This document shows positions 24,010 through 32,111 of a stretch of 64,000 nt of DNA, piece by piece. The stretch is taken from IMG/VR virus record IMGVR_UViG_3300037189_019086. The stretch is one strand, 5' to 3'. The notes beneath the pieces were generated by a model, which ran no database searches, had not been told where the DNA came from, and saw only the letters and a program-made list of their open reading frames with translations. Both the position numbers and the translations under genes were made by a program. This stretch comes from an uncultured virus (IMG/VR IMGVR_UViG_3300037189_019086). Taxonomy: Duplodnaviria > Heunggongvirae > Uroviricota > Caudoviricetes. The first letter of the stretch is position 1. The number at the start of each line of letters is the position of its first letter.

Positions 24010-25128
24010 TCAGACTTCCACTTTCACGGTCTCGCCCCACGGGGCGATCTTGTTGTTGATGGTGCACCACAGGACCGGGTAATCCGGCGGCGCGGCGGGA
24101 AACGGACCTTCGAGGTCCGTCAGGTACACAAGGCACGAGGGCGTGATGCCCTGCTCTTCGAGCCACGCGAACGGCGGCCGGAAGTCCGTGCCGCCGCCGC
24201 CATGACACTTGACCTTGAACGGGTCATCAGGCCCGAGTTCATCGACGTGGTTGACCCGTGCGTCGCACGAGATGACCCAGGTCGTCTCAGGCGTGGCTGC
24301 GTCACGTGCGGCTGCGGTCTCGGCGCTGAATGCGTTGAGCACGCGCTGGCTGATGGAGCCGGAGTCGTCGGTGACGACCACCAGGGTCTGCATGCACTGG
24401 CTGTAGCGGCCGGGCAAGTAGATGCCCATCGCCGCGAACCGCTTGTTGGGCTTCATCCAGTCGAAGCCCTCGCGCGAGCGCTCGGTGATGAAGCGGCGCA
24501 GCAGCGTGCGCCAGTCCGCCTTGTTGTCGAGCAAATGCTCGACGAAGCGGGTCAGCGAGCCGGGCAGCTTGCCAGCCTTGGCGGCGCTGTTGGCAGCCTG
24601 GACGATGGCGACGGCCCACTCGCGGGCCTTGGCGGTCTGGGCGGCTTCGGTGCCCCCGCCGGGTGGAGGCGGCAGCATGGCGTCGAAGCTGCCTTTGCCG
24701 CCGGCACCGGCGCCATCCTCGGGCAGCAGCTCGTACACCTGATCGGCGTACATGCCAGCGTACTTCCCGTCGATGAGCCAACTGTCCGGCACGGTGAAGC
24801 CGGAGTCGCGCAGCAGCCAGTTGATGACGTAGTCGCAGGCGTGATTCCAGCGCTTCGGCTGGCGCACGCCCAGGCGGGCCATGTGCTGAAACATGCAGTG
24901 GCCGACTTCGTGAGCGACGCCGGACTGGCGGACGTTGTCGGAGTTCGTCAGCACCCAGTGCGGGTGGTAGAACAGCGACTCGCCGTCGGTGGCGAGCGTC
25001 GGCGGGTCGAGGTCTTCGCGCTCGACGAGCGGCAGCCGTAGAGCCAGCATGCCCCAGAAGGGCTGGGCCTTGAGCATGCTGAGCCGCGCCTTCATCATGG
25101 CGCGCTCAGCCTTGTTGTTTGGATTCAT
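24010..25128 (-). CDS. Metallopeptidase + vWA protein (DUF2201-like)
   Basis: ATDG, AHEVGH (HExxH), WNHACD, DDSGS MIDAS, GGGGTDF, YLTD. Confidence 0.88.
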   Translation of the reverse strand: MNPNNKAERAMMKARLSMLKAQPFWGMLALRLPLVEREDLDPPTLATDGESLFYHPHWVLTNSDNVRQSGVAHEVGHCMFQHMARLGVRQPKRWNHACDYVINWLLRDSGFTVPDSWLIDGKYAGMYADQVYELLPEDGAGAGGKGSFDAMLPPPPGGGTEAAQTAKAREWAVAIVQAANSAAKAGKLPGSLTRFVEHLLDNKADWRTLLRRFITERSREGFDWMKPNKRFAAMGIYLPGRYSQCMQTLVVVTDDSGSISQRVLNAFSAETAAARDAATPETTWVISCDARVNHVDELGPDDPFKVKCHGGGGTDFRPPFAWLEEQGITPSCLVYLTDLEGPFPAAPPDYPVLWCTINNKIAPWGETVKVEV

Positions 25129-25587: not shown

Positions 25588-26430
25588 TCACCAGTTCATG
25601 CGCGACAGGATGTCGTCGGCCTGATCAGCCACCTTGCGACGCAGGCCCTTGTCCTTCTTGAGCCGGTCGGTGGGCACCAGCAGCGCGTCGATGTCCAGGC
25701 CGAGCTGAGCCAGCACCGGGTCGTTGTTGATGTTGAGCGCCGGCAGCAGGCTCACGAAGTCGCGGGCGTTGCCCATGAGCGACTCGTAGATCTTGCCGTC
25801 CTTGTCGTTGCAGCGCTCGGAGATGCGCTTGACGACGTCCTTGGCGCGCTCGAAGCACTCGCGCACCATGCGCTGCTGACGCTGCTCGTAGTCGGCGGCG
25901 ATCTGGCGTTTGATCTGATCGACGTGCTCGGTGCTGAGCGACACGCGGAAGTCGTCGGCCGTGGCCAGCGGCATGACGCTGATCCTGAAGTCGAACTTGT
26001 CCCGCACCACCGACGCATCGGGGTAGTCCTGCGGGTCGTACATCTTGCCCAGCTCACGGCGGGCCTGCTGCACGTAGTCCGGGTAGTTGCGCACGAAGTC
26101 GAGCACGCAAGCCTCGAAGCGATTCTCCAGCGCGTCCATCTTGGCCTTGTACGTGGGGTACAGCGACGCGGGCATGATGCGGTCGTTGTTGTCGCCCCAG
26201 CCGAGCGTCATCGTGGCGTGCAGATCGCGAGCCTCGGAGACGACGCTCACGATGCCAGCCAGCGAGTCGCGTTGGAGCAAGCTCTTGTTGAAGTTGCCGG
26301 CGCCGTGCTTGGCGTCGTTCTGCGAGACGACGGCGCTGGTCACCTTCTTGTCGCGCTTGCGCGCCTGCCACTGGCTGATGTTCAGCGAGGCCAGCAGAGC
26401 GCGCTGGTGGATGGGCTTCTCGTCGGTCAT
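25588..26430 (-). CDS. DUF3150-like protein
   Basis: LNISQW..RK.D, TLGW, YDPQDYP, LNINNDP pattern; sits between MoxR and vWA genes. Confidence 0.6.
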   Translation of the reverse strand: MTDEKPIHQRALLASLNISQWQARKRDKKVTSAVVSQNDAKHGAGNFNKSLLQRDSLAGIVSVVSEARDLHATMTLGWGDNNDRIMPASLYPTYKAKMDALENRFEACVLDFVRNYPDYVQQARRELGKMYDPQDYPDASVVRDKFDFRISVMPLATADDFRVSLSTEHVDQIKRQIAADYEQRQQRMVRECFERAKDVVKRISERCNDKDGKIYESLMGNARDFVSLLPALNINNDPVLAQLGLDIDALLVPTDRLKKDKGLRRKVADQADDILSRMNW

Positions 26431-26432
26431 GG

Positions 26433-26801
26433 TCAGTCCTTGGTGAGTTCAGCGAAGACCCGCTCAGCGATGTACGCCGCATAGATGCCGCGCATCAGCG
26501 GCGACTTCGCTGCGGACTCGATGAACTTGTCCTTGCGGTAATGTGAGAGATGGTTGAAGCGCTGAAGCTGCGGGCTGCGGAGCTTGCGCAACGCAGCGCG
26601 CATCTGGCGATGACTGTTCTGCTGGTCGCGTATCGACGTGAAACCGTAGTCGATGCCCCAGCGGAGCCCGTCGAGATAGTCGCCGTGCCGGCTGAAGACG
26701 TATGCGTCGAACTGCTTCGCCCAGGCGCGTGGGGCACTATCAATCAGCTTGCATGCATGCTCCATCTTGATCCGCATCTCGACGGCGGTCAGGTCTTTCA
26801 C
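26433..26801 (-). CDS. Hypothetical protein
   Basis: Start overlaps the ATPase stop. Confidence 0.55.
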   Translation of the reverse strand: MKDLTAVEMRIKMEHACKLIDSAPRAWAKQFDAYVFSRHGDYLDGLRWGIDYGFTSIRDQQNSHRQMRAALRKLRSPQLQRFNHLSHYRKDKFIESAAKSPLMRGIYAAYIAERVFAELTKD

Positions 26802-27805
26802 CCCAGCACCAAGTCGCGGTGCTCCATGGCGAAGTCACGGAACTCGGGGAGGAGCTTGATGCGCGAGTCGTGGTTCGATGCGTCGCGGCCAAACAGCACG
26901 GTGATTTCCGGCGTGTTCAGTCGCTTGATGTACTTGTAGGCCGCCGGGAAGGTCTTCTCGTCGACCTGCTTGTCCAGCATCGACATCACGGCGTACTTGG
27001 CGCTGAGCTTGTCGGGGACCGGGGCACGGTCCGGGCTGGAGAAGATTTCCTGCGCCGTGGGCAGGCCGACCATGTGGTCAAAGAACGCACGCAGCTCGAT
27101 GCTGACAGCCGGGCCAACCGTGCCGCTGATGAGGTCGTCCACGACGCTGATGGGCGTGCCCTTCTTGGTCGCAGCCTGGAGCAGGCGGTCGAGGTAGACC
27201 CAGGTGCGCGGTGACGGGAACGCTGGCTCCTTGGCGCGGGCATCGAACACGTGCAGCGCCAAGCCCTTCTTGAAGCGCTGGAACGCGATGATGCGCGGGT
27301 CCACGCCGACGGCACGGGCGTAGGCGATCCACTCTTCGAGGTCCGCTTCGACGGTCAAGTGGACCATGCGGTTGGCCAGCGGGCCGGCCATGCGCGTCAC
27401 GTTGGCGCGGTCCTTCTCGGTGTTGCCGGCGGCGATGATGTCCCAGCCCGGCGGCAGCTTGTAGTTGCCGACCTCGTGGGTCAGCATGAGCTGGTAACAG
27501 CTCGCCTGGACCATCTTGTCGGCGAGGTTCAGCTCGTCGAAGAAGAGGATGCCCTTGCCGGCCTTCGGCAAGAAGTCGGCGGGCAGCCAGGTCATGACCT
27601 TCTTGGCCATGTCGGGGGCGGGGAAGCCCTTGATGTCCGTCGGGTCCAGGTTGGCGAGGCGCACGTCGCGCAGCTCGACCTTGCGCTGCTTGGCGAGCGC
27701 GGCGACGCCCTCGGACTTGCCGACGCCGGCCGGGCCCCACAGCATCACCGGGAGGTGGCAGTCGAGGCAGACGTCGGTGGCTTGAATGGCTTGGCTGAGC
27801 TTCAT
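26798..27805 (-). CDS. MoxR-like AAA+ ATPase
   Basis: GPAGVGKS Walker A, LFFDELN Walker B, AAGN sensor, LANR, PSPRTW. Confidence 0.9.
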   Translation of the reverse strand: MKLSQAIQATDVCLDCHLPVMLWGPAGVGKSEGVAALAKQRKVELRDVRLANLDPTDIKGFPAPDMAKKVMTWLPADFLPKAGKGILFFDELNLADKMVQASCYQLMLTHEVGNYKLPPGWDIIAAGNTEKDRANVTRMAGPLANRMVHLTVEADLEEWIAYARAVGVDPRIIAFQRFKKGLALHVFDARAKEPAFPSPRTWVYLDRLLQAATKKGTPISVVDDLISGTVGPAVSIELRAFFDHMVGLPTAQEIFSSPDRAPVPDKLSAKYAVMSMLDKQVDEKTFPAAYKYIKRLNTPEITVLFGRDASNHDSRIKLLPEFRDFAMEHRDLVLG

Positions 27806-27825: not shown

Positions 27826-28125
27826 AAAGGAAGGGGTCGCCGACCGTACGTGCCTGTCGTGCAGGCGACCCCCGGGCTACCAGTGCGTGCTGGTTGGATG
27901 ACGACAACGACAACAATGACCCGGCGTCCTACCGCTGAACGAAGAGGTCACTGGGGTCAACGTCACACGTGGCGTTGACCGTGGAGACCCCTGCTGGAGT
28001 CGAACCAGCGTTACCGGGTTGTGGTCTGTAGTTACAGCACGCACTTCTCACGCAGACGCTGTCAGGCGATACGAGACTCAGTGACCCGTACGATGACGAC
28101 AACGACTACGTTGGCCTGAAACTTG
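27826..28125 (-). ncRNA. Circularly permuted tRNA-like structured RNA (YrlA-like or two-piece topology); outer boundaries approximate
   Basis: 28018-27982: CCCGG TAAC GCTGG-TTCGACT-CCAGC AGGGGTC T CCA; 32-nt hairpin linker; 27949-27920: GACCTCT TC GTTC-AGCGGTA-GGAC G CCGGG; all four stems pair. Confidence 0.8.
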
Positions 28126-28128
28126 GTG

Positions 28129-28887
28129 TCAGGACTCGAACGGGCGCAGCAGGAGCTGCACCAGGGCGTCGCCCAGGTTCGAGTCGCCGACGGCGGTCTG
28201 GTTGGCCCGCATGCGGGCCTGCTTGACTTCGACCAGCATCTCGTCGACGAGCTTGATGGCCTCGGCCTTCTGCACAGCGGTGGCGGCACCGCTGCGCTTG
28301 ATGAGGGTGAACTTGCCCACGGTGTTGTCGCGGGTCGACTCCTTCACCTGGGCCGGGTGCTTGTCGGTGGCCGCTGCCAGCACGACAGGCACCATGACCT
28401 TCTCGGTCTTGGTGGCGTGCTCGGGCGGCGCCACCCAGGTGCCGGTCTGCGGGTCGTGCGCCCAGGTACGGCTGGCGTCCAGCGTCGGCACGGCCAGGAA
28501 GATTTCCTTGACCTTGACGAGCCGCGCCTCCAGGCCCAGGAGCTGATCGACCGGCAGTGCGCTGGCCAGCAGCTCACCGCGGAACACCAAGTCGGCCGTC
28601 GCAGCGCGGTTGGCCTCATTCTTCTGGTGCTGGAGCGTCTCGACCTTGCCGTAGAAGCCCAGCGCGTAGTGGAGCGTATCGCGCACGTTGGTGGGCACGG
28701 CCTTGTTCTCGGCGGCCTGCGCCTCGATGGCCTCGTTCGCCGCGCTGTCTTCCAGCATCTTCAGCGACTTGGTGTGGCCCTCGAAGTAGTGGCTGTTGCA
28801 GAGCTTCTTCAGCGTCTCCTGGTGCAGGGTGTTCCAGGAGGCGTTGACCGTCTTTTCGGCGGCCAGGAGTTCGTGAATGACAGGCAT
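28129..28887 (-). CDS. Uncharacterised 252-aa helical protein flanked by structured RNAs
   Basis: AAGGA RBS; LLGLE.RL, PTLD, KTEK, ATDKHPAQV, SGA, VKQARMRAN; strong codon bias. Confidence 0.85.
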   Translation of the reverse strand: MPVIHELLAAEKTVNASWNTLHQETLKKLCNSHYFEGHTKSLKMLEDSAANEAIEAQAAENKAVPTNVRDTLHYALGFYGKVETLQHQKNEANRAATADLVFRGELLASALPVDQLLGLEARLVKVKEIFLAVPTLDASRTWAHDPQTGTWVAPPEHATKTEKVMVPVVLAAATDKHPAQVKESTRDNTVGKFTLIKRSGAATAVQKAEAIKLVDEMLVEVKQARMRANQTAVGDSNLGDALVQLLLRPFES

Positions 28888-28913: not shown

Positions 28914-29340
28914 ACCGAACAGTGGTGCAGGCAGACTCACGTCGTGCTGACACACTCCGCTTCCCGATGTCAGTCGAGAGCGCACAGCGCTTCCTACCTG
29001 CACCACTGTTCGGTCATTGGTCCCCGCTTCTCTCCCGGGGTGGTCACGCAGCGAGTTATGTGCTGTTCCTTGCCAGGGGACTGGCTACCCCTCGGCTCAC
29101 ACTGGCGAACTGCGTGTTGCCGTTGGTTTGAAGTTGGATCAGCCCAGCAAATCGGTGACCCAGGACGGGGTCGTGCGCCCTGACAGACGACCAAGTGTTT
29201 CGTCGTTTGCCAGAGCCCTATCTGTCCGGCTCCACCTCGTGCACAGGCAGACCCGGAGTGATCCAACACATGAAGCTCTAAGCCTCATGTCTTGGATCGA
29301 AATTGGATTCTTGGACAAGGCTTCGAGCCTCGTCCAATGG
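28914..29340 (-). ncRNA. Candidate multi-domain structured RNA / leader
   Basis: Perfect 18-bp inverted repeat 28914-28931/28997-29014 plus several nested stems; no convincing ORF. Confidence 0.5.
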
Positions 29341-30849: not shown

Positions 30850-31584
30850 TCAGGCCGTGGCGTTGCCCGTCAGGCGCAGCAGCTTGTCGCGCTGCTCGCC
30901 GCTGGCCGCGCCGAGCACCTGCTGGGCGAAGCTGCGGCGCATGTTCTCGCGCACGATCACCGCGGCCTCGGCGACGATTTCGGTGTTGCGGGCTTCGTTG
31001 GCGACGTGCGCGGCCATGTCGATCTTGGCGATCACCCACTTGTACTCGGTGTCGCAGCCCGGCTCGATCTTGGCTTCGTTGTCCATCCGGACGACGACGC
31101 CGCAGGTGTAAAACCCGCGGGTGTCGATCACCACCCAGTCATCCTTCTCCAGGGCGAGATGAGTGACGTAGGTGTACGTCTTGGTGGCGGTGCTGTCGGC
31201 GCCAACCAGCCTGACGTGCACGGTCTTGGCGTCGGAGCGGAGCAGGGCGGCGAGGTTATGGTCCATGATGCGGTTGCCTTTCTTGGCAGCGGGTTCGGGG
31301 TCGAGGGCGTACGTCAAGTAGTCGTACTTGTGCAGAGTGCAGTCGTTGGGAAGCGGGGCGATGTCGAAGTACGCGTCGAAGTACCGTCGAAGCTGTTCGG
31401 CGTCTTCGACTGTGCAGGCGTAGCCGCGGTCTCCGTAGAGAGAGAGAGAGAGCAGGCCCTGGCGGATACGTGAACGTCGGGCGCCGAGCGATGCTCTTGG
31501 TGCTACGGACGAGTACGGCCTCGTGAAGTACCCGTCTTGCTTCAAGCGGTCGCGCCACTCTGCGAGCTGTTCGAGGTGAGCCAT
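30850..31584 (-). CDS. Hypothetical protein (may start at the internal ATG near 31267)
   Basis: C-half (KTYTY...YKWVI) has strong codon bias, N-half weaker. Confidence 0.55.
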   Translation of the reverse strand: MAHLEQLAEWRDRLKQDGYFTRPYSSVAPRASLGARRSRIRQGLLSLSLYGDRGYACTVEDAEQLRRYFDAYFDIAPLPNDCTLHKYDYLTYALDPEPAAKKGNRIMDHNLAALLRSDAKTVHVRLVGADSTATKTYTYVTHLALEKDDWVVIDTRGFYTCGVVVRMDNEAKIEPGCDTEYKWVIAKIDMAAHVANEARNTEIVAEAAVIVRENMRRSFAQQVLGAASGEQRDKLLRLTGNATA

Positions 31585-32111
31585 CAGAAATCTCCTGGCG
31601 CCACCTGACAGCACAGCACGCCGTTGCGGCGCCACATCTCGACGACTTGGTTGCGGTCATCGAACACGCAGACCAGACGGGCGCGATCTTCAGGGCTCAT
31701 GGCGTTCAGCCAGCGCTCCTTGAGCACGTGGTCGATGGTGTGGTCCTTGGCCGGGCGCATGCGCAGGTTGGTGATCAGCGGCAGGATGCCTTGGTCGCCC
31801 AGCCACGCCATCGTCTCGATCTGCACCGTGGCCATCCGGCCCGACCAGACCCAGACTTCGGGGCCAGTGGTAGCGAGGTGCTTGAGCAGGCTGATCACCG
31901 GCTTGATCGGTGTATCGTCCACGCAGGCCGCGTGGAAAGCATTCCAGTTCGGTGTGAACTGGCGGCGCAGTGCAGTGCAGTGCGGGCAGCCGTCCAGCGG
32001 CTTGCGCAGCGGCTCGCACTCGTGGCACGACGGCTTCTCGACGAAGTGGCGGCGGTGGCGCAGGTCGGCGAGCGTGCCGTCCAGGTCGAAGATGAAGAGA
32101 GGTCTGGTCAC
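31584..32111 (-). CDS. HAD phosphatase, PNKP 3'-phosphatase-like
   Basis: FDLDGT, WSGR, LRMRP..D, FDDRNQVVEMWR. Confidence 0.88.
   Translation of the reverse strand: MTRPLFIFDLDGTLADLRHRRHFVEKPSCHECEPLRKPLDGCPHCTALRRQFTPNWNAFHAACVDDTPIKPVISLLKHLATTGPEVWVWSGRMATVQIETMAWLGDQGILPLITNLRMRPAKDHTIDHVLKERWLNAMSPEDRARLVCVFDDRNQVVEMWRRNGVLCCQVAPGDF

Follow-up and report, generated by a model that had tools for sequence, protein, structure and literature searches.

TRAP, Hfq and Cas7 are oligomeric proteins that read a regularly spaced base in single-stranded RNA, with one unit of the RNA per subunit; TRAP recognises triplets spaced at five bases in a leader RNA, and Cas7 advances in six-base steps. 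In the two-piece permuted tmRNA, the gene order is T arm, acceptor 3′ strand with CCA, intervening piece and acceptor 5′ strand. A permuted tRNA-like structure is also found in the Y RNA YrlA (RF02553), in which, according to the available portion of its description, a T arm, a closed acceptor stem and a D arm follow one another without an anticodon loop, and in which a cut by RNase P and a CCA end are considered possible (PMC4201824). The YrlA anticodon stem is extended into a stalk, the base of which binds the protein encoded next door, as stated in the accessible parts of both reports (PMC4201824; 10.1101/312249). The role of such an anticodon-less tRNA mimic is left open in that portion of the text (PMC4201824).

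The window analyzed here, the whole stretch of 64,000 nt, is phage DNA that carries terminase, portal and capsid families. We describe a region of its minus strand that forms the arms of a non-coding RNA of approximately 300 nt, located directly behind the gene of a DUF7873 protein. This RNA has repeated six-base units in its arms and a predicted permuted tRNA-like head, and it recurs behind DUF7873 genes in other phages.

Layout of the element in the window

The element occupies the gap between the DUF7873 stop codon and the AAA ATPase gene, and its parts are listed in Table 1. The two 11-mers that the initial annotation had paired are exact reverse complements of each other, and the 15-mer is present once in each flank, with no third copy in the window; U is also the middle base of every triplet quoted there. 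In dinucleotide shuffles of the 324-nt intergenic region, a perfect 11-bp inverted repeat arose in 25 of 1000 cases and a 15-nt direct repeat in none of 1000. The 11-bp helix (P2) was recovered in both the minimum-energy and the centroid folds (z of -2.8 and -3.3). It had been thought to clamp both flanks; the helix is present, but it encloses the 3′ tract only, and the 5′ tract lies outside P2, in the loop of a separate 6-bp helix (P1). Among nine close loci read by eye, P1 retains a GGC/GCC core and varies in its outer pairs. The evidence for P1 comes from this close clade, because its automatic detection across all loci was noisy.

Table 1. Positions of the DUF7873 gene and of the parts of the RNA behind it, in coordinates of the window
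Feature	Position	Strand	Basis or remark
DUF7873 gene, 252 aa, candidate protein partner	28129-28887	-	Pfam PF25283, E 2.5e-61; model pLDDT 89
Helix P1, 5′ strand	28114-28119	-	Complementary to 28067-28062
Helix P1, 3′ strand	28062-28067	-	Pairs with 28114-28119
Tract A: four hexamers, each carrying C-G-U at positions 3-5; first 15-mer copy (28106-28092)	28089-28112	-	
Small hairpin in the P1 loop, with an extra hexamer at its end (28075-28070)	28070-28090	-	Folds
Two more hexamers past P1	28049-28060	-	Folds
Helix P2, 5′ arm (11-bp helix)	28035-28045	-	Complementarity, covariation
A/C-rich 16 nt on the 5′ side of the large internal loop found in place of an anticodon loop	28019-28034	-	Sequence
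3′ strand of the anticodon stem (28018-28014), then a variable loop of 4 nt with C48 as its last base	28010-28018	-	
T arm with canonical T loop	27993-28009	-	
Acceptor stem 3′ strand, discriminator U, encoded CCA	27982-27992	-	
Intervening 32-nt hairpin linking both acceptor strands	27950-27981	-	1-228 nt in relatives
Acceptor 5′ strand, D arm (27940-27926), anticodon stem 5′ strand (27924-27920)	27920-27949	-	
Tract C: three hexamers and a partial one; second 15-mer copy (27911-27897)	27897-27917	-	Internal loop, 3′ side
Helix P2, 3′ arm	27882-27892	-	Complementarity, covariation
Very small hairpin past P2, then a 3′ hairpin rich in G+C that carries a pyrimidine tail	27826-27881	-	Fold

The hairpins at 27826-27881 probably constitute the 3′ end of the RNA; similar ones, with a related internal motif, were found in loci L002 and L209. 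A promoter scan returned no sigma-70 site, and no terminator was called on the minus strand.

Right behind the RNA, on the same strand, lies a cluster of genes encoding an AAA ATPase (26798-27805), a DUF3150 protein (25588-26430) and a DUF2201 protein (metallopeptidase and VWA-like, 24010-25128), which is not a general neighbour of the DUF7873 family. Directly before the AAA ATPase start are four tandem C/A-rich pentamers (27825-27806, minus strand) and no obvious Shine-Dalgarno sequence. On the other side, upstream of the DUF7873 gene, a structured-looking non-coding stretch (29116-29017, minus strand) is well conserved in L002 and not in L086, L034 or L036. It had no Rfam match; its appearance may be ribozyme-like, and an HDV-like ribozyme was considered. 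A 21-bp inverted repeat at 28914-29014, with arms that are 95% complementary and separated by 59 nt, lies immediately upstream of the start of DUF7873 and is probably a recent insertion, because it is absent from L002. An 18-bp hairpin at 29260-29298 is found in L002 too, with compensating changes. A gene for a PNKP-type HAD phosphatase (31584-32111, minus strand) is located 2.7 kb upstream of the cassette. The 3′ hairpin and a piece of the DUF7873 coding sequence are complementary over 17 nt, but this pairing was rejected: the portion in the hairpin is self-complementary, and the L002 hairpin would need a codon that differs from that of its protein.

Linkage of the RNA to the DUF7873 gene

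We compared 163 DUF7873 loci, one of which (L204) is identical to this phage. Loci with a complete gene end and 400 nt of downstream sequence were considered evaluable (142 loci), and a permuted-tRNA module was detected downstream in 127 of them, compared with 7 of 120 upstream control stretches scanned with the same detector. For at least some of the 15 loci without a detected module, the RNA went undetected within 1 kb; by eye, four of the 15 show a variant T-loop module and several show none. By eye, too, no clear hexamer tract or permuted head was found behind DUF7873 in L095-L097, L146-L148 and L161, or directly behind it in Gordonia phage Keelan (L166:4741-5120). The linkage was also analyzed in reverse. 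A pattern derived from the arms matched 29 viral stretches, six of which have a T arm, and DUF7873 is encoded at all six; the other 23 matches lack both the T arm and DUF7873, and we regarded them as chance.

Removal of near-duplicates left 99 loci, and among these no other neighbour gene recurs in more than eight; the most recurrent cluster (8 of 99) may encode a polynucleotide kinase. The DUF7873 family is mostly viral and comprises 2,628 clusters at 50% identity, and the 75 annotated phage records that carry it have hosts among the Proteobacteria, Actinobacteria and Cyanobacteria. In L018 the gene is interrupted by an internal stop, and in L025 it appears to be frameshifted, and the RNA is kept in both; these two loci were omitted from the protein alignment on account of internal stops. 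In the homologous loci, both the tracts and the helix were found to be conserved, as parts of a scaffold shaped like a tRNA. The DUF7873-linked element is real and conserved. Searches for DUF7873, DUF6847, DIP1984 and related phrases retrieved no description of this RNA, so that it is undescribed in the literature searched, which leaves supplements and subscription papers as places that could contain it.

The tRNA-like head

Reading the minus strand by hand, the head begins with the 3′ strand of the anticodon stem, the variable loop, the T arm and the acceptor 3′ strand with U and CCA, and continues with the 32-nt hairpin, the acceptor 5′ strand, the D arm and the 5′ strand of the anticodon stem. 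As judged from sequence, the head is a circularly permuted tRNA that lacks the anticodon loop and retains the elbow, a 7-bp acceptor stem and an encoded CCA. Arms of 16 nt and 27 nt, which close in P2, take the place of the anticodon loop. A decoding tRNA, canonical or permuted, was considered and rejected, given these arms in lieu of a seven-base anticodon loop and the absence of any gene called by ARAGORN. Rfam gave nothing at gathering score in the window, and only chance-level matches at a relaxed E-value. The anticodon stem forms all five pairs in 56 of 98 loci, compared with 6.0 in swapped controls.

Two heads are found in 38 of the 99 non-redundant loci and one in the remaining 61. Where there are two, the first head is distinguished by a longer D arm and, in 29 of 38 loci, by a discriminator A, while the last or single heads have A73 in 12 of 99 and an encoded CCA in 58 of 99. 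The linker between the acceptor strands is 5 nt or shorter in 18 of 99 loci. With CCA in only 58 loci and such short linkers in 18, a free CCA end is therefore not general. This phage has a head of the last type only, with C3-G70 and U73, and the small hairpin in its P1 loop lies where the two-headed relatives carry their first module.

In Klebsiella phage vB_KpM_FBKp24, a suppressor tRNA is annotated, probably wrongly, within the DUF7873-linked RNA (L165:6018-6097). In many two-module loci (for example L017-L019, L054, L060 and L064), the stalk below the last head carries a recurring internal-loop motif that is missing from the clade of this phage.

Covariation of the P2 stalk

In an alignment of this RNA with seven close relatives, both partners vary in six of the seven P2 pairs tested. 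Covariation scored 0.68, compared with 0.23 in shuffles (none of 500 reached the observed value) and 0.07-0.17 when the helix was slid, although these controls are lenient because the sequences are related and the structure was taken from the window. Across the family, the two arms of one RNA out-pair 95% of swapped partners in only 35 of 98 loci, where about 5 are expected, and this RNA ranks first; the fixed windows of this test overlook some helices that are plain by eye. From comparative sequence evidence, the P2 stalk is conserved and covarying.

These data bear on the reading of the element as a signal in cis, in which the tRNA-like head would serve processing or stability (a cut by RNase P, a CCA end) and DUF7873, bound to the hexamers, would regulate its own mRNA or the genes that follow. 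The element always lies just 3′ of the DUF7873 gene and on the same strand, as expected for such a signal, and a 7-bp acceptor stem made the M. smegmatis YrlA a substrate of RNase P, as reported in the available portion of PMC4201824. The genes downstream are not conserved, however, and tandem heads in 38 of 99 loci together with a covarying stalk exceed what a cleavage signal needs. In many loci the linkers of 1-5 nt would probably make poor substrates as well. We consider a signal in cis unlikely.

Period of the tracts and nature of their constraint

The initial annotation had described tracts with a period of 3 nt. This period is seen locally, but it is a special case of a 6-nt period. Among the 99 loci, the autocorrelation of U was 1.27 at lag 6 (z 13), 1.19 at lag 12 and 1.12 at lag 18, compared with 1.01 at lag 3 (z 1), and runs of at least three hexamers were present in 91 of 99 loci versus 58 after shuffling. 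The profile of the unit is A (63%), two positions of any base, a position that is mostly not A, U, and a last position of any base. When the first four hexamers of the nine close loci were tallied, 34 of 36 had U at position 5, 34 of 36 had G at position 4, and only 20 of 36 had U at position 2. The triplet look is thus a clade-specific form of the hexamer. These results indicated that the tracts are built of hexamers in which a single U is fixed, with a period of 6 and not of 3. By eye, this RNA has about ten such units, nine of them with C-G-U at positions 3-5.

The exact duplication of the 15-mer is peculiar to this phage and did not hold as a shared trait: a repeat of 15 nt was found in 1 of 99 loci, and one of at least 12 nt in 4 of 99. 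More generally, the tracts of one RNA share a word of at least 8 nt in 23 of 99 loci, versus 5.8 when tracts are compared across loci. The type of hexamer tracks the protein tree, which shared descent or base composition also accounts for.

The tracts had been suggested to be displayed on the scaffold as a template, and the information that they might hold could be read out in two ways, by tmRNA-style translation into alternating beta-strand peptides or by copying with a reverse transcriptase. Read in the hexamer frame, the tracts do alternate between polar and hydrophobic residues, this frame has a greater open length than the others (median of 20 versus 7 codons), and CCA is often encoded. 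Synonymous codons are not interchangeable, however: the ratio of AGR to CGN for Arg was 107:28 in the tracts and 152:891 in the genes of the same loci, and that of AGY to TCN for Ser was 57:23 and 301:816, respectively. The tracts are constrained as nucleotides, with a bias for A at position 1, and not as codons. In addition, stops occur in 21 of 725 hexamers, about as expected from base frequencies, the shortness of the other frames would be due to U-N-A forming stops, the frame relative to the gene stop is evenly distributed (29, 25 and 23 of 77), and a start codon precedes the tract in only 20 of 77 loci. A reverse transcriptase was found in 1 of 50 records, in none of the 20 near-complete ones and in none of the window ORFs scanned. 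A template role, with no fixed frame and a bias at the nucleotide level, is therefore weakened, and we regard any readout of the tracts as information as highly improbable.

The proposal that the tracts are single-stranded was not supported by the predictions for protein-free RNA, in which the pairing probability across 90 loci was 0.577 within the tracts and 0.577 outside, and the tracts were less paired than the rest in 42 of 90. In this RNA, tract A is predicted with high probability to pair with the hexamers past P1, in competition with P1, so that binding of a protein would need to open tract A. The tracts could pair with RNA instead of binding protein. They might pair with each other, forming RNA oligomers or a switch or pseudoknot that opposes P1, or they might act as a guide that pairs with a target and has every sixth base flipped out. 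A pairing similar to that of tract A is possible in several close relatives, and hexamer positions 2 and 4 are mildly correlated, both of which would suit such an interaction. Yet both arms of L046 and L061 are pyrimidine-rich and cannot pair, and the bases between the U's are biased and repetitive, which would make a poor guide. No target for the tracts was found in the window, where the best other sites, with the fixed U's left free, had 4-5 mismatches of 20. A role of the tracts in RNA pairing is, in our judgement, quite unlikely, and the guide that had been envisaged for them found no counterpart in the window.

The DUF7873 protein and its possible relatives

The predicted structure of the DUF7873 protein consists of long helices and a long beta-hairpin. 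Across 22 aligned proteins, positions 160, 163, 176 and 182 on this hairpin are K or R in every row, in a protein with a net charge of -2. Foldseek gave no match to the model at E 0.001 in the PDB or among viral models, no PDB match was found by sequence, and the protein was assigned to no PHROG family. Likewise, profile, Foldseek, wide fold and PDB sequence searches gave no match of DUF7873 to TRAP, Hfq or Cas7 among the families listed. The best fold match was the DIP1984 protein 3kdq (Z 9.7, rmsd 8.3, 149 residues aligned), with a Z that lies within the chance range for helical proteins, and atlas rows link DUF7873 to DUF6847-like clusters (TM 0.44/0.61). The profiles of DUF7873 and DIP1984/DUF6847 (Pfam PF20935) show no similarity (probability 0.7%).

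We then compared 13 cyanobacterial and 3 plasmid DUF6847 loci. Like DUF7873, the DIP1984/DUF6847 gene precedes its own conserved RNA-like stretch in most of them. This stretch, of approximately 200 nt, lies just behind the stop codon in L167-L171 and L173-L183 and contains an apparently covarying short helix; it is common to cyanobacteria and to Acinetobacter and Enterococcus plasmids, is clearly degenerate in L181, and had no Rfam match in the five loci tested. It contains a few hexamer-like words; unlike the DUF7873-linked RNA, it shows no tRNA head by eye, and a regular six-base run was not demonstrated. No DUF6847 gene was found in viral contigs. A broader scenario would unite DUF7873 and DIP1984/DUF6847 in a single superfamily, each member of which would polymerise along short periodic tracts in the non-coding RNA at the 3′ side of its own gene, to which phages would have added anticodon-less tRNA heads, yielding a multivalent tRNA-decoy particle that neutralises tRNA-attacking host defences; we see this as a long shot.

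A possible particle that displays a tRNA-like head

Our best reading, to which we give about an even chance, is that copies of DUF7873 dock on the hexamers and that the RNA stalk displays the permuted tRNA head, in line with the suggestion that the tracts are binding sites for an oligomeric protein. The RNA would derive from the transcript that also carries the DUF7873 gene. By comparison of loci, the tRNA head is held by P2 and the anticodon stem, and about ten fixed-U hexamers lie in the loops beside P1 and P2; each copy of DUF7873 would bind one hexamer, presumably via its basic beta-hairpin. The bound protein would keep the tracts open, so that a particle displaying the head might form. 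If this particle exists, it would be a Ro60-independent counterpart of the Y-RNA particles and would offer a direct way to ask what anticodon-less tRNA mimics do.

Anticodon nucleases cut tRNA in the anticodon loop. The head might mimic a tRNA that is neither charged nor cleavable and thereby sequester a host protein acting on tRNA, the most plausible target being an anti-phage tRNA nuclease or a toxin that modifies tRNA ends. We put forward this decoy role because the head keeps the elbow and often CCA without the loop that those nucleases cut, but only tentatively, and hold it to be doubtful. Recruitment of a host enzyme or of the ribosome by the head is nearly as plausible. As for a direct link to defence, DUF7873 had no PADLOC hit. 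Whatever the role of the head, the RNA offers a simple code of one fixed U per six bases, and the large DUF7873 family comes with an unannotated structured RNA, which misleads annotation.

Comparison with known systems

The triplet repeats of TRAP targets had been named as a comparison for the tracts; unlike in TRAP targets, the unit here is a hexamer, and it is located in a structured RNA at the 3′ side of the gene. With the two-piece tmRNA, the DUF7873-linked RNA shares the order of the T arm, the acceptor strands and the intervening piece. Unlike tmRNA, it has a full D stem and an anticodon stem, it does not have G3-U70 as a rule (G3-C70 and C3-G70 dominate), and A73 is present in only 12 of 99 last or single modules; no tag frame with a conserved resume point and stop is found, and ARAGORN and Rfam were negative.

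The RNA could also be a divergent YrlA-type Y RNA that binds the host Ro60 (Rsr), with DUF7873 merely an effector or a neighbour. Its permuted topology is that given for YrlA in the accessible parts of PMC4201824 and 10.1101/312249, and the YrlA model gave sub-threshold matches in 30 of 50 records. Such sub-cut-off matches were obtained in 6 of 14 control genomes as well, and none of the 50 records exceeded the RF02553 cut-off (best 49.6 versus 69 bits), with no match in the record of this phage. A Y RNA of this type is encoded no more than about 4 kb from a Ro60/TROVE gene, but TROVE genes are present in 2 of 50 records and in none of the 20 near-complete ones, and no TROVE/Ro60 match was found in the 73 window ORFs scanned. 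The Ro-binding motif GNCGAAN0-1G, expected near the 5′ end, is absent from the RNA strand of the element, as scanned in the identical record L204. The absence of Ro60 from all 20 near-complete records weakens this reading, as that of reverse transcriptase weakens a template, and we deem a genuine Y RNA very unlikely.

Nevertheless, YrlA and the DUF7873-linked RNA have in common the succession of T arm, closed acceptor stem and D arm without an anticodon loop, the extension of the anticodon stem into a stalk, and the possibility of an RNase P cut and a CCA end, as far as the available portions of the YrlA reports describe them (PMC4201824; 10.1101/312249). They differ in that the candidate partner is DUF7873 and not a TROVE protein, and in the hexamer repeats of the arms, the frequent presence of two heads and the 7-bp acceptor stem, commonly with an encoded CCA, of the phage RNA. 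By analogy, the DUF7873-linked RNA may serve as a tether in the manner of a Y RNA, without belonging to the Y RNAs.
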